Source: an uncultured Gemmatimonadales bacterium
Lineage (GTDB): Bacteria > Gemmatimonadota > Gemmatimonadetes > Gemmatimonadales > Gemmatimonadaceae
DNA: 64,000 bases
Reading direction: 5' to 3'
Assembly (NCBI GenBank): GCA_963701965.1
Contig: OY969695.1
Coordinates: 1,280,001-1,344,000, forward strand
Shown here: one piece after another, positions 59,548 to 64,000 of the stretch
Position numbering within the stretch: the stretch's first letter is position 1
Layout of the letters: every line of letters starts with the position of its first letter
Made by a program: the position numbers and the translations under genes
Notes under the pieces: generated by a model
Told to the model about the DNA's origin: nothing
Seen by the model: the letters and a program-made list of their open reading frames with translations, nothing else
Databases searched by the model: none

Positions 59548-60728
59548 GAGGGGTCTGCTTCGCCGTCGTGCTGGGCGCCAGCGTGGCCGGCGCCCAGCAA
59601 CCGACGGCCGATCAGCGCCTGCGAGCCGACCGCGCCGAGCTCGACTCGCTGCACGAAGAGCGCGCCGACCTGGAACACCGGATGGCCGAGCTCCGGAACA
59701 GCGTCCACGACCTGTCCGATGAGGTCGAGAATCTGGACCGCCAGGCCGTCCTCACGGCCCGTGCGGTGCGGGCGTTGGACGGCCAACTCGTCGCCATCGA
59801 GGTCGACATCGACGAAGTCACAGGGAATCTCGTGCGGGCCGAGGACGAGCTGGCCATCAAGCGGGCGATGCTCCGCCACCGGATCGTCGAGATCTACAAG
59901 GCAGGCCCGCGCCATACGACCGAGGTGCTGTTCGAGGCCGAGTCGTTCGCGCAGCTCATCGCGCGCTACAAGTATCTGCATCTCCTGGCGCTACGCGACC
60001 GCGCCCTGGTGTCCCGCGTGGAGACGCTCAAGGAACGGATCACCCAGCAGCGCCGGTCACTGGTCGCGCTCCAGACATCCGTGGAAGAGACGCGGAGCGA
60101 GAAGGCCAGCGAGGAAACGCGCCTGCGCGATCTCGAGGTCGAGCGCGCAGGCCGGTTGGCCCAGGCCAAGCGCGCGACCGCCGAGACCGCGGCGCGGTTG
60201 GCCGAGATCGCGAAGTCGGAGGCCCATTTGGGCTCCGTCATCAGCTCCATCGAGACGGCACGGAAAAAGGCGGAGGCCAAGGCCAACGCGCCGGCGGCTG
60301 CCGCCAGCACATTGACCACGCGGGATATCGGTCGCCTCGACTGGCCGGTGGAAGGGCGCATCCTGTATCGATTTGGACGGGTTGTAAACCCCAACAACAC
60401 CACGACGCGGTGGAACGGCATCGGCATCGGCGCCAATCTCGGGACGGCCGTGCGGGCCGTGGAATCCGGGCGCGTCGTCGTGGCCCAGGTGATCGGCACG
60501 TATGGCCTGACAGTGATCGTGCAGCATGGCGGCGGCGACTATTCCGTGTACGGATCGCTGAGCCGCGCCAATGTGAAAAAGGGACAGCACGTCGACAAGG
60601 GCGACCAGATCGGGTCCGTCGGGCGATCGGATCCCGAGCTGCCCGCGCACCTGCACTTCGAGATTCGGCGTGGACAAGGCGCCGCCGTCGATCCGCTGGA
60701 CTGGCTGCGCGGCGGGAAATCCCGATGA
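59544..60728 (+). CDS. envC: Murein hydrolase activator EnvC-like (coiled coil + degenerate M23); start probably CTG 59544, first canonical start GTG 59568
   Basis: Long coiled coil, LDWPVEG, WNGIGI (lacks HxxxD), HLHFEIR; follows ftsEX. Confidence 0.87.
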   Translation: MRGVCFAVVLGASVAGAQQPTADQRLRADRAELDSLHEERADLEHRMAELRNSVHDLSDEVENLDRQAVLTARAVRALDGQLVAIEVDIDEVTGNLVRAEDELAIKRAMLRHRIVEIYKAGPRHTTEVLFEAESFAQLIARYKYLHLLALRDRALVSRVETLKERITQQRRSLVALQTSVEETRSEKASEETRLRDLEVERAGRLAQAKRATAETAARLAEIAKSEAHLGSVISSIETARKKAEAKANAPAAAASTLTTRDIGRLDWPVEGRILYRFGRVVNPNNTTTRWNGIGIGANLGTAVRAVESGRVVVAQVIGTYGLTVIVQHGGGDYSVYGSLSRANVKKGQHVDKGDQIGSVGRSDPELPAHLHFEIRRGQGAAVDPLDWLRGGKSR

Positions 60729-60961
60729 CGCGGAAGGCGCGTCCAGCCCCGGCACGGGTAACCAAGCGTTGTCCGACCTGCGGGCGATTCCGGGTCTACG
60801 AAGCCGACGACCAGTTCTGTGTGTTGTGCGGCAGCGAGGGGCTGCTCGACCGGTGCGCCTGTGGGCGGGTGTTCGACTACGCGATCGCCGAAGAAGGGGA
60901 TCTGCACTGCCCCCGCTGCGGGCAGGTCGTCCGCGGTCGCACGCGTGAATTCGAGAGCTGA
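60725..60961 (+). CDS. Small double zinc-ribbon protein
   Basis: CPTCG, CVLCG, CACG, CPRCG; ATGA overlap with the envC stop. Confidence 0.78.
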   Translation: MTRKARPAPARVTKRCPTCGRFRVYEADDQFCVLCGSEGLLDRCACGRVFDYAIAEEGDLHCPRCGQVVRGRTREFES

Positions 60962-61012
60962 GCGGGTGCCGCGCTGGAATTTCCGGCGGAACGCCGGTAC
61001 CATAGACCGGGT

Positions 61013-61345
61013 ATGAGTCGCGTGTTCCGCCACCTGCTCGCCATTTTCGCCGTGTTCGGCCTGATCGCCATCGATCTGGCGCCGATTGCGGAGGCGTGGA
61101 GCGGGCCGGATGCGGCGGCACACGTCGAGCAGCGCGGCACACAGCTGCACTACGCCCACAACGAAGCCACCTGCCCCGCCTGCGTCACGCGCACCCTCGT
61201 GTCGCGTGGCGCGGCTTCCGCCGCGCCGGCGCCCGATGTGCGCGCCAGCGAGACGGCTTCCGTCATGCAAGTCGAGCGGCCGGCCCACTCCCAGGTCTCA
61301 CGGTCGAACGGATCACGAGCTCCGCCCCTGACGGCGTCGCGCTGA
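61013..61345 (+). CDS. DUF2946/CruR-like leader protein: signal/TM, His + CxxC, C-terminal RAPP
   Basis: MSRVFRHLLAIFAVFGLIAI...LHYAHNEATCPAC...GSRAPPLTASR*; 13 nt before the TolC-family gene. Confidence 0.78.
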   Translation: MSRVFRHLLAIFAVFGLIAIDLAPIAEAWSGPDAAAHVEQRGTQLHYAHNEATCPACVTRTLVSRGAASAAPAPDVRASETASVMQVERPAHSQVSRSNGSRAPPLTASR

Positions 61346-61358
61346 CCACTCTGGGACC

Positions 61359-62657
61359 ATGTCATCACAATTCAGGTGGGCGCTCTGCCTCGCGATTTTC
61401 GCGCGGGCAGCTTCGGCGCAACAACAGACACAGGATGCGAGCGCCAACGACACGCTGCGACTGACCCGGTCGCAGGCAGTGGCGATGGCCCTGGCGCACA
61501 ACCCGCAGATCGTCGTCGCGCGAGAGCAGATCGACGAGGCACGCGGGCAGCGCACGAGCACGTGGGCCATTCCGGACCCGCAGGGCTCCGCGCAGTACGT
61601 CCAGGAGAAAGGATTTCCGACCGGCAAACCGATCGGGGCGAGTATCGATATCCCCTTCCCCGACAAGTTCCGGCTGAACTACGCCATCGGCACCGCGGGC
61701 GTCAAATCGGCCGAGGCCAACTACGCGGGGCTCAAGCAGCAGATCGCGTCGCAGACGGCGCAAACGTACGACTCGCTGCGGGTTGCCCTCCGGCACCGAA
61801 GCGATCTCACGGAATCGCACGATCTCTCCGCCGACTTTCTCAAGAAGACGCAAGCGCGGTTCGAGGCCGGCACGGCCGCCAAACTCGACGTGATTCGCGC
61901 ACAGGTGGATGAGGCCAGTGCCCAGAACGACCTGATCGCCAACGGCCGCGAGATCGCCAACGCCCGCGCGTCGCTCAATCGCCTCCTGGGGCGTGGGTTG
62001 GGTCTCGGGGTCGAGGCGGCTGATACGCTCAATGTCCCGCTCCCGCTGCCGCCGTTGGATCCGATCGAGCAGAGCGCGCTCGCGGCGCGGCCCGAGTTGG
62101 CCGGGCTCCGCGCCGAACAGGCCGGCGCCCACGCCACGACGGTGTTGGCCCAAGAGTTCTGGCTACCGGACATCGTGGGCGGCGTGACGTGGGACCTGGG
62201 CGCGCCCGACGTGTCGTTTCCCAACCGATTCCCGATCTTCAACTACGGGCTCTCCGTGCCGATCCCGATCTTCTTCTGGCAGCATACCGGGGGCGACATT
62301 CGCGCGTCGCGCCACCACGAGCGCGAGCTCGAGGCCTCCTACCGCGATCTGCGGGCGTCGGTCGATCAGGACGTGCGCAACGCGTATTCGACGGCGGCCA
62401 CCGCGCTCCAACAGGCGGTGTTCATCCGCGACCAGTTGCTCCCGTCGGCCGAGGCGGCCTACAAAGTCGCGTCGGTGAGCTACGGACTCGGCGGCTCGTC
62501 GGCGCTCGACGTGCTGGGTGCGCGCCGCGATCTGGTGGCCGCCCAGGCGCAATACACGGACGCGCTGGCGGCCGCAAATCAGGCCCAGGCCGATCTGGAG
62601 CGCGCCGCGGCAGCGCCGCTGGCGCAATTTCGCACGGGAGGGTCCAGTGGACAGTAG
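61359..62657 (+). CDS. TolC/CzcC-family outer membrane efflux protein
   Basis: Signal peptide, LTRSQAVAMALAHNP, RFEAG...LDVIRAQV, GGSSALDVL. Confidence 0.92.
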   Translation: MSSQFRWALCLAIFARAASAQQQTQDASANDTLRLTRSQAVAMALAHNPQIVVAREQIDEARGQRTSTWAIPDPQGSAQYVQEKGFPTGKPIGASIDIPFPDKFRLNYAIGTAGVKSAEANYAGLKQQIASQTAQTYDSLRVALRHRSDLTESHDLSADFLKKTQARFEAGTAAKLDVIRAQVDEASAQNDLIANGREIANARASLNRLLGRGLGLGVEAADTLNVPLPLPPLDPIEQSALAARPELAGLRAEQAGAHATTVLAQEFWLPDIVGGVTWDLGAPDVSFPNRFPIFNYGLSVPIPIFFWQHTGGDIRASRHHERELEASYRDLRASVDQDVRNAYSTAATALQQAVFIRDQLLPSAEAAYKVASVSYGLGGSSALDVLGARRDLVAAQAQYTDALAAANQAQADLERAAAAPLAQFRTGGSSGQ

Positions 62658-63789
62658 GCCAGTGGCTTTTGCCGCCGTGGCGGCGCTTCTGCTCGGGGGA
62701 TGTCGGGGAGACTCCCAGAAGAGCTATGCGGCCACCGTGGCCAAGCCCCACACGTCGGCGTTCATCCTCACCGAAGAGCAGCGCGCCCGCATTCACACCG
62801 AGCCTGTCACCCCCTCAATGTTCCAGCCGACGGTGACGACCACGGGTACGGTGGCGTTCAACGGCGACCGCTCGACACCGGTGCTGTCGCAGATCTCGGG
62901 ACCCGTCACCCGCATTCTCGTCACGCAGGGCACGGTGGTGCACGAGGGCACGCCCCTGGCGACGGTCATCTCCCCGGACTTCGCCCAGGCGTTCGCGTCA
63001 TACCAGAAGGCCCAGACCGCGCTCCGCAACGCCGCGCGCATCGCCACGCTGGACACGAAGTTGTTCGCCAATGACGCGATCGCCAAGAGCGATCTCGATC
63101 AAGCGCGGGCCGACTCCGCATCGGCGGCGGCCGACCGCGACGCCGCCATCCAGCAGATGATCGCGTTCGGCGTCGATAGCGCCGCCATGCGGGGCATCGA
63201 GGAGGGCAAACCCGTGACGTCGCTCCCGGGCACGATCCGGGCGCCGATCGACGGCGTCGTGGTGGAGAAGTTGATCAACCCCGGGCAGGTGATAGAGGCC
63301 GGGCAGACCCAGTGCTTCACGATCGCCGACTTGTCGACCGTGTGGGTCATGGCCAACGTCTTCGAATCACAGTTGAACGCGGTCGAGAAAGGCGAGCCGG
63401 TCGAGGTCACCACCGACGCCTCGCCCGATTCGTTCCCGGGACGCGTCGACTATGTGGCGGCGATCGTGGACACTTCTACGCGTGCGACCGCGGTGCGGAT
63501 TCTCGTGCAGAACCATCGCCAGGCGTTGAAGCGCGACATGTATGTGCGGGTGGCGATCCGCTCCGATCGCGCGCTGCCGGGCATGCTGGTTCCGGTGTCG
63601 TCTGTGCTCCGCGACGAGGAAAACCTGCCGTTCGTGTTTGTGGCCGCGCCGGACGGGGGCTTCAACCGCCGGACGATCACGCTCGGACAGCGCGTCGGGG
63701 ACCGGTATGACGTGCCCTCGGGTCTCGCCGCGAACGACAAGGTGGTCACCGAAGGCGGGTTGTTCCTGCAGTTCGCCGAGAGCCAGTAA
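62647..63789 (+). CDS. RND periplasmic adaptor (CzcB/CusB-like) lipoprotein
   Basis: LGGC lipobox, IRAPIDGVV, IADLSTVWVMANVFE, VD..TR, GL...DKVVTEG. Confidence 0.92.
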   Translation: MDSRPVAFAAVAALLLGGCRGDSQKSYAATVAKPHTSAFILTEEQRARIHTEPVTPSMFQPTVTTTGTVAFNGDRSTPVLSQISGPVTRILVTQGTVVHEGTPLATVISPDFAQAFASYQKAQTALRNAARIATLDTKLFANDAIAKSDLDQARADSASAAADRDAAIQQMIAFGVDSAAMRGIEEGKPVTSLPGTIRAPIDGVVVEKLINPGQVIEAGQTQCFTIADLSTVWVMANVFESQLNAVEKGEPVEVTTDASPDSFPGRVDYVAAIVDTSTRATAVRILVQNHRQALKRDMYVRVAIRSDRALPGMLVPVSSVLRDEENLPFVFVAAPDGGFNRRTITLGQRVGDRYDVPSGLAANDKVVTEGGLFLQFAESQ

Positions 63790-64000
63790 TGATCAATCGG
63801 CTGGTCCGCGCCGCGCTCGCCGAACCGCTCCTCGTCTTCCTGATCTTCGCCGCGGTCACGGGCGTCGGCATCTGGTCGTTCACCCGATTGCCGGTCGACG
63901 CCTATCCGGACCTCTCGCCACCGATGGTCGAGGTGATCACGCAGTGGCCGGGGCGCGCCACCGAGGAAGTGGAGCGACTGATCACGGTGCCGGTCGAAGT
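63789..64000 (+). CDS. CusA/CzcA heavy-metal efflux RND permease (partial, runs off window)
   Basis: MINRLVRAAL...LPVDAYPDLSPPMVEVITQWPGRATEEVERLITVPVE. Confidence 0.9.
   Translation, partial: MINRLVRAALAEPLLVFLIFAAVTGVGIWSFTRLPVDAYPDLSPPMVEVITQWPGRATEEVERLITVPVE

Follow-up and report, generated by a model that had tools for sequence, protein, structure and literature searches.

Only two leaders of the kind considered here, CruR and CutF, have a known mechanism; both sense copper, and what sets the sign of the response is the question that they pose. For CruR (Bp2923 of Bordetella pertussis), the passages of PMC9426467 that treat it describe a 45-residue spacer, relief of the arrest by copper and Rho termination, and the arrest has been placed on the prolines of the RAPP motif by toeprinting (PMC12992588, in the part on CruR). 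For CutF, encoded in the cutFOG operon of Rhodobacter capsulatus, sections of bioRxiv 2025.02.05.636593 report that copper promotes stalling, which melts a stem-loop at the ribosome binding site (RBS), and that the two leaders have opposite signs. In the searched parts of two surveys, Ozturk et al. find CutF-like proteins beside RND outer-membrane factors more often than beside any other neighbour, naming SilD, CusD and CzcI in list D (PMC9973294), and RAPP upstream ORFs are enriched before genes for MFPs (620, 16-fold), TolC (530, 5.5-fold) and CusA/CzcA (50, 28-fold), with some preceding zinc-regulated outer-membrane receptors (PMC12992588). These catalogued leaders have the same arrangement as the locus described here, for which the surveys give counts only, and the view in the preliminary description of our locus that a leader in front of an exporter is unusual is not supported. 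The metal-induced logic that it put forward as a departure had likewise already been shown for CutF (PMC9973294; bioRxiv 2025.02.05.636593, both in the sections on CutF). Names of gemmatimonads were not found in the searched passages and supplement parts of PMC9973294 and PMC12992588 and may occur in the remaining supplement; no exchange between importers and exporters was seen in the searched parts of either survey.

Our locus lies in a window of 64,000 nucleotides (G000:C1:1280001-1344000; assembly GCA_963701965.1, contig OY969695.1) from an uncultured Gemmatimonadales bacterium, whose genome is called G000 below. Like CruR, the window leader has an export signal, a CxxC motif and a C-terminal RAPP, with a spacer of 44 residues against 45, and is the first gene of a metal-transport operon. 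In CruR the downstream gene is ON in the stalled state, and the same is predicted for the family of the window leader. CruR senses copper and heads a TonB receptor across a 162-nt gap, with Rho termination as its output, whereas the window leader has three extra histidines, a gap of 13 nt and a predicted occlusion of the RBS, scores below the Pfam cut-off, and belongs to a family whose cargo is a ZneA-like pump or a ZnuA-type importer, neither of them copper-related. A check for a CruR-type Rho signal returned, besides the 13-nt gap, a modest excess of C over G in the 3' half of the leader, which Pro and Ala codons also give. With CutF the family would share an exported nascent-chain sensor and a stem-loop over the next RBS that is melted by stalling, the latter being predicted for most relatives and not for the window copy, and CutF and the window leader each head a gene thought of as detoxifying. 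CutF differs in that it has a CxxxC and a PPP motif instead of CxxC and RAPP, needs EF-P, and is stalled by copper; the importer swaps described below argue for a sign opposite to that of CutF.

The leader gene and the pump operon

The leader ORF, predicted to encode a CruR/CutF-like arrest leader, lies at 61013..61345 on the + strand; its translation confirmed the length of 110 aa, the CPAC and RAPP motifs and the 13-nt gap as first described. Residues 1-28 (61013..61096, +) are read as a signal peptide or transmembrane helix, in that residues 3-29 form a hydrophobic helix in the AlphaFold model (pLDDT 83-95) and an A-x-A signal-peptidase-like site can be read from the sequence at residues 26-28; the model as a whole has two helices, is unstructured elsewhere and contains no domain. 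The metal site predicted from conservation in homologs (61121..61183, +) comprises His37, His46-x-x-His49 (codons 61148-61159) and Cys54-Pro-Ala-Cys57 (61172-61183). It is followed by a 44-residue linker (61184..61315, +), poorly conserved in sequence and fixed in length by homolog spacer counts, and by the predicted arrest motif RAPP (61316..61327, +), of which R and both prolines are invariant in aligned homologs. The PP pair falls at residues 104-105, and five codons (LTASR) separate RAPP from the stop. Between the leader stop and the ATG of the outer-membrane factor (61359) lie the 13 intergenic nt (61346..61358, +), with a weak G-rich RBS and, judging from spacing and fold, a remnant of the stop-codon hairpin of the family.

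A -10-like hexamer of the form TAnnnT (60998..61003, +), 9 nt before the leader ATG, is predicted to mark the leader's own promoter and a near-leaderless mRNA. Such a hexamer stands 5-12 nt ahead of an in-frame leader start at 118 of 167 family loci, compared with 11% of shuffles, an enrichment which suggests that the leader has a promoter of its own. Scans of the leader locus returned no full sigma-70 promoter and no intrinsic terminator. The genes upstream are ftsE, an ftsX-like gene, an envC-like gene and a 78-aa zinc-ribbon ORF, and in agreement with the preliminary description no metal-responsive regulator was recognisable within about 4 kb. The 78-aa double zinc-ribbon ORF (60725-60961, +) overlaps the envC-like stop and ends 51 nt before the leader; a zinc-ribbon ORF adjoins envC also in G001, G003, G005 and G007, and it matched no family above the cut-off. 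In the GC-rich genome G000, a loose CxxC..RAPP-like regular expression picked out 18 of 54,514 stop-to-stop segments, mostly off-frame junk; this and a profile search found no paralogous leader in G000 beyond the window copy, and a scan of this genome for DUF2946 gave no match over the cut-off.

Downstream follow a TolC/ZneC-like outer-membrane factor (61359..62657, +; PF02321, 179 bits), a periplasmic adaptor or MFP (62647..63789, +; PF16576, 168 bits; TIGR01730, 156 bits; GTG start chosen from the sequence) and the 5' end of a ZneA-like heavy-metal RND permease (63789..64000, +; TIGR00914, best PDB match 4k0e), which in the genome is 1029 aa long and ends at window coordinate 66878. The operon had been described as tolC-MFP-cusA/czcA. 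The three families stand, the full permease passing the CusA/CzcA model TIGR00914 at 912 bits (cut-off 701.45), and the subtype needs correction, since the nearest structure is ZneA (4k0e, 731 bits) and not CusA (540 bits). A copper pump was considered and rejected because of the lower score of CusA and the missing methionine triad: at the positions that we take to be those of the triad, the three methionines of CusA align with V559, N610 and E661.

Among the residues that we assume to form the metal site of ZneA (E136, D602, E610, D654 and D658), the last four align with acidic periplasmic residues kept in the window pump, and E136 is Leu in 90 of 90 of its orthologs. The acidic periplasmic cluster D604, E612, E656, D657, D660 and E661 is retained in 86-88 of 88 orthologs, and the acids D392/D398/E405 of the DFG-D-EN motif in 88-90 of 90. 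This proton-relay motif, common to the window pump and ZneCAB of Cupriavidus metallidurans (4k0e), is given as one of divalent-metal pumps in a passage of PMC11647595. A divalent cation is the likely substrate. With 69-79% identity to the pump, its named relatives belong for the most part to Gemmatimonadota. The RND stop overlaps the start of pckA, and the pump operon may run into this gluconeogenesis gene; the same RND-pckA order occurs in G001, G003 and G005.

Conservation and class of the leader family

A phmmer search with the leader against 1.84 billion cluster representatives found 199 homologous 50%-clusters at E<=0.001. Among the best 150 of these 199 homologs, CxxC is present in 149 and a RAPP-type motif at most 15 residues from the end in 138 (134 RAPP, 2 RSPP, 1 RGPP and 1 RAGP), so that the conservation of both motifs, on which the preliminary reading hung, is upheld. 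All 138 homologs with both motifs have 43-46 residues between them, the number being exactly 44 for 122 of these homologs. In 111 aligned homologs H49, C54, C57, R102, P104 and P105 are invariant, H37, E39 and H46 are conserved in at least 90%, and the linker has no consensus; the window leader retains all six invariant residues.

Since this search used the motif itself, we ran a control with the permease alone as query. It yielded 80 loci, of which 12 had too little upstream DNA and 68 were examined, two of the latter repeating loci fetched earlier. A hydrophobic ORF ending in RAPP, RGPP or RPPP precedes the outer-membrane factor at 60 of the 68 orthologous pump loci, compared with 0 of 600 random 1-kb windows, and the leader-bearing pumps span Gemmatimonadota, Acidobacteriota and Alphaproteobacteria. 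At one of the eight remaining loci a RAPP ORF is present but did not pass the filter for hydrophobicity. The leader is present in all nine close orthologous operons (one, L009, from the unpublished genome G012), and the closest named pump, L022, has no leader upstream.

Some leaders vary this pattern. In L005, L006 and L007 (orthologous pump, family f3) RAPP and its spacing are kept and CxxC is replaced by His...H-x-x-x-C or a single Cys. In Acidobacteriota, leaders of this pump (L042, L044, L061, L063, L068 and L075) end in RPPP, with a spacer of 43-44. Paralogous RND operons (33% identical) at L016 and L020 have other small exported leaders with Pro-rich tails, a Cys/Met-rich one of PPDLPPPRL type and a His-rich RAPPPR.

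Membership of DUF2946 (PF11162), raised as a check in the preliminary description, was not borne out: it is the best Pfam match of the window leader, at 13.6 bits (E=0.12) under a cut-off of 23.7 bits. Of the 111 family members, seven reach about the cut-off (E<=8e-5) and 67 match at E<=0.1; at 25.5 bits, the leader before an orthologous pump of Alphaproteobacteria exceeds it, and hhalign relates the alphaproteobacterial leader set to the window leader family with a probability of 97. The nearest clusters in the ESM Atlas are unnamed, one Gemmatimonadota cluster having 13% DUF2946. Because the score is below the cut-off, yet relatives reach DUF2946 and hhalign links the sets, we classify the leader by sequence comparison as CruR/CutF-like and not as a member of the Pfam family. 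It also agrees with the filters by which Ozturk et al. define CutF-like proteins, being shorter than 150 aa, with PP in the last 15 residues, an N-terminal signal (assessed here from sequence and model) and a same-strand gene within 1000 nt. The metal-sensing arrest leader of CruR/CutF type originally proposed is supported by the conservation, the 44-residue spacer, the export signal and the RBS hairpin predicted in relatives, and we hold with high confidence that, whichever the sign, this is a RAPP arrest leader which acts on the operon behind it.

One cassette before different cargos and its predicted RNA switch

Searched with a leader profile, 67 of 201 genomes of the phylum gave a match, a tally that includes the unpublished G012. 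Among the 69 leaders of this leader-first census, 18 precede an exporter, 25 an importer operon of porin-like, ZnuA and ABC-3 genes, 23 a TonB-dependent receptor and 3 something else; porin-like gene first, then ZnuA and ABC-3, is the order seen where the importer-locus DNA reaches, and four exporter leaders (that of the window and those of G007, G013 and G012) are not counted, being duplicates or unpublished. To these a second batch, in which close homologs are over-represented and unpublished genomes included, contributed a further 63 exporter, 17 importer, 5 TonB and 3 other loci. Metal-type transport genes or TonB receptors are headed by 163 of 169 classified leaders. Both the importer and the exporter version are frequently encountered in one genomic context, close to envC and pckA. 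At L134:9497-10846 (-), L135:1619-2845 (+) and L137:12265-13626 (-), the ZnuA/ABC-3 operon opens after the leader with an exported protein of ~400-450 aa; it has no Pfam or NCBIfam match, and its reading as porin-like and for zinc uptake comes from context. Some genomes have two leaders a few kb apart (L244-L247, L143-L145, L137, L148 and L211), one before a TonB receptor and the other before an exporter or a ZnuA operon. G000 has a leaderless TonB-dependent receptor (L189, G000:C1:3527879-3525576), 52-54% identical to leader-headed receptors of relatives.

In a quick tree of 78 leaders (106 columns, 38 of 75 inner branches open), the cargo labels are clustered, yet exporter and importer leaders interleave, with at least six changes forced by the starred branches, and the nearest neighbour is an exporter leader for 18 of 42 importer leaders. 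Four same-genus pairs of genomes (G061/G050, G138/G184, G319/G375 and G218/G269) carry the cassette before different cargos: the leaders are 51-67% and the DNA from RAPP to the start codon 66-79% identical, and the mature cargo proteins are unrelated (19-23%). In G061/G050, the downstream proteins agree at 18 of their first 20 residues, the cargo being an importer in G061 and an exporter in G050. The swapped cassette is taken to comprise the leader, the predicted hairpin and the start region. The ZnuA-type binding protein scores with both AztC and MntC, and two leader-headed TonB receptors score best with the zinc-uptake ZnuD model. In the literature searched, which took in few subscription papers, we found no paper on an importer/exporter exchange of such leaders and no zinc-sensing arrest peptide; the exchange of one cassette, unreported in that literature, is the new element here, the placement of leaders before pumps being known already.

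For the junction between leader and cargo, start codons were chosen by signal-peptide and SD score, and the cost of opening the RBS was computed with and without a 30-nt ribosome footprint centred on the third residue of RAPP, after removal of loci whose start lay more than 200 nt away or could not be found. These folding statistics, the swap pairs and the tree were made without unpublished genomes. The footprint lowers the cost by a median of 2.7 kcal/mol before exporters (n=26), 3.4 before importers (n=25) and 2.2 before TonB-dependent receptors (n=21), compared with 0.3 at 63 control junctions of G000, 24% of which gain at least 2. A gain of at least 2 kcal/mol was obtained for 16 of 26 exporter, 17 of 25 importer and 11 of 21 TonB loci, and in the second batch for 40 of 52, 11 of 17 and 1 of 4. 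Exporters and importers do not differ in gain (p=0.31). Because kin are not independent, all these statistics are inflated and the p-values overstate.

As Pro codons are C-rich, tails and spacers were also cross-paired between loci. Native tails gave a median of 2.95 and cross-paired ones 0.79, the native value being higher in 51 of 72 cases, and at 145 loci at least three footprint-RBS pairs were formed natively by 63 of 78 exporter, 29 of 42 importer and 17 of 25 TonB junctions, as against 29, 19 and 9 after cross-pairing at the same loci. Folds of single loci have a long hairpin between the G-rich RBS and the codons of the prolines, the tail and the stop; RNAalifold on 21 aligned close loci returned no consensus structure, so the hairpin is a locus-by-locus feature. 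The predicted gain is +6.6 kcal/mol in G061 and +9.5 in G050, and in the swap pair L247/L245 the RBS hairpin is absent from the MFE. In exporter and importer cassettes alike, a ribosome stalled on RAPP is predicted from these folds to free the downstream RBS.

The window copy is an outlier. Its distance from the third residue of RAPP to the ATG, 37 nt, is the shortest of 161 loci (the next is 50 nt), and among 38 short-spacer loci none folds more weakly. In its mRNA the predicted gain from the footprint is -1.6 kcal/mol with default parameters and lies between 0 and -4 across nine parameter sets, and the footprint fails to free the RBS because the latter pairs with codons upstream of it. The predicted pairing arm (61294..61306, +; ViennaRNA) is peculiar to the window copy, pairs with 61343-61358 and had no conservation in same-genus relatives; it would leave the RBS open under a ribosome at the stop codon and closed in the stalled state. 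In same-genus relatives the hairpin is predicted to be freed by stalling, at +4.5 to +11.3 kcal/mol. The shortened spacer was misplaced by MAFFT. Among sequencing runs, one of soil DNA shares 7% of words and no RNA run was listed; the contigs of the soil run were short pieces of relatives, none usable across the RAPP-ATG junction. A homopolymer error at the C-run after RAPP is an unlikely cause of the ~25-nt shortening. Because the hairpin is cut down in its own genome, control in the window may, on these folds, be leaky, unchanged or switched to release of the ribosome followed by coupling.

Proposed metal and sign of regulation

The mechanism that we propose would begin with transcription of the leader from its own promoter and co-translational export of the peptide, upon which the ribosome would arrest on RAPP, as CruR does in vitro. 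By the folding computations and their controls, the Pro, tail and stop codons of the family would pair with the downstream RBS, so that the stalled state is the ON state. The 44-residue spacer would set CxxC just outside the tunnel, where metal-driven folding could relieve the arrest, as has been proposed for CruR. The sign would be set by the importers, the swap being read from sequence: an importer is expected to be ON under metal shortage, in which case metal should relieve the stall, and with a near-identical cassette in front of it the exporter would then be a low-metal gene as well. We give about an even chance to this reading, in which the stall on RAPP frees the RBS of the pump and metal, likely zinc, relieves the stall and shuts the pump, making it a low-metal and not a metal-induced gene.

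ZneA is a zinc exporter (PMC8277102), and part of PMC11647595 reports that ZneCBA and ZniCBA rise in EDTA-starved Cupriavidus. This rise of ZneCBA, together with the presence of the same cassette before ZnuA-type importers, runs counter to the preliminary argument that an exporter needs the opposite, metal-induced logic. Several points weigh against the low-metal reading. In the mRNA of the window copy the footprint is predicted not to free the RBS, no consensus fold was returned for the close loci, and the swap pair L247/L245 lacks the RBS hairpin in its MFE. At 51-67% identity, the leaders of the swap pairs have diverged far enough for the peptide to have reversed the sign, which differs between CruR and CutF. 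The Zne/Zni data of Cupriavidus come from a pump about 40% identical that stands in another regulatory setting. The sensed metal is likely zinc, which is favoured because of the His/Cys ligands and the ZnuA-, ZnuD- and ZneA-like cargos. Manganese is kept as a candidate because a DtxR/MntR-type repressor is present in G000, G050, G061 and G066 and the binding protein resembles MntC too; the importer may thus be for manganese and under other control.

No Fur/Zur-family gene was found in G000, G050, G061 or G066, and G000, at 95% completeness, gave neither a Fur-family nor a ZnuA match. A Fur-family gene was not found in G000 and in 16 of 38 family genomes of 95-99% completeness, a tally that also takes in unpublished genomes, which is unusual against 12-13 of 14 control genomes. 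Of the 16 family genomes lacking a Fur-family match 14 carry the leader, as do 10 of the 22 that have such a match (Fisher p=0.016; the unpublished G012 is included). This link is weak, since both traits are shared among kin and the leader model itself derives from the clade of the query.

RND pumps for divalent metals are as a rule resistance genes, and the operon could instead be a metal-induced exporter, in which metal prolongs the stall and so frees the RBS by the logic of CutF, itself an instance of this sign for a detoxifying gene. In a variant suited to the window, the stalled state would keep the RBS closed, and metal-driven release would lead to termination 13 nt ahead of the pump genes and to coupling into them; its spacing, the shortest of 161 loci, and an RBS predicted closed when stalled and open under a terminating ribosome are in keeping with this. 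The near-identical importer and exporter cassettes of G061 and G050, with the same predicted switch, speak against it, as do the stall-freed hairpins of same-genus relatives, and the alternative helix of the window is not conserved and would have to enclose the ribosome. We regard metal-induced export as possible though less likely than the low-metal reading; because the hairpin is shortened, it stays a serious rival for the window genome. With the same sign for both cargos, Cd, Cu, Co or Ni might as a toxic competitor prolong the stall and so induce export of the intruder together with compensatory import of Zn or Mn. This would fit every swap and folding result as well as the metal-promoted stalling of CutF, and Cys/His sites such as this one can bind several soft metals. 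It is nevertheless unlikely, given that a third of the leader-first set heads TonB-dependent receptors, which are typical starvation genes and include two ZnuD-like ones, and that the spacer matches that of CruR, where metal relieves the arrest.

Two other explanations do without a metal response. The leader might monitor secretion force or periplasmic disulfide formation in the manner of SecM or ApdP, with CxxC as a redox switch; RAPP marks Sec-monitoring peptides and RAPP upstream ORFs also precede DsbA/thioredoxin genes (PMC12992588, in the part searched), and the model for CutF invokes disulfides. The three conserved histidines flanking CxxC, and a cargo of metal-type transport genes or TonB receptors in nearly all classified leaders, make this very unlikely. 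Least probable, to our mind, is that the product is a small periplasmic metal-binding accessory protein, or that the window holds a decayed switch without regulatory effect. The window copy has indeed lost most of the hairpin, and both the pump (L022) and the TonB receptor (G000) also occur without a leader, but an invariant RAPP and a linker of fixed length and free sequence make no sense in a finished protein, the leader model is unstructured apart from two helices, and all six invariant residues are kept in the window copy.

If the low-metal reading is extended to the family, we would suggest, tentatively and as less likely than not, that a zinc-sensing arrest cassette made up of promoter, leader, stop-codon hairpin, RBS and signal-peptide start has been swapped in Gemmatimonadota among ZnuA-type importers, TonB receptors and a ZneA-type exporter with its sign unchanged, that it stands in for Zur where a Fur-family gene is missing, that this clade of pumps serves the zinc-starvation response, and that the window copy is a natural mutant in which the switch is flipped or relaxed through mRNA geometry alone. 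The swap pairs, in which a single cassette heads an importer in one genome and an exporter in its same-genus partner, amount to a natural experiment on the sign and make it directly testable. If the starvation reading is true, these leaders would be an arrest-peptide zinc sensor that replaces Zur at the level of translation, and there would be reason no longer to take the ZneA-type pumps of Gemmatimonadota and Acidobacteriota from soil as markers of metal resistance.
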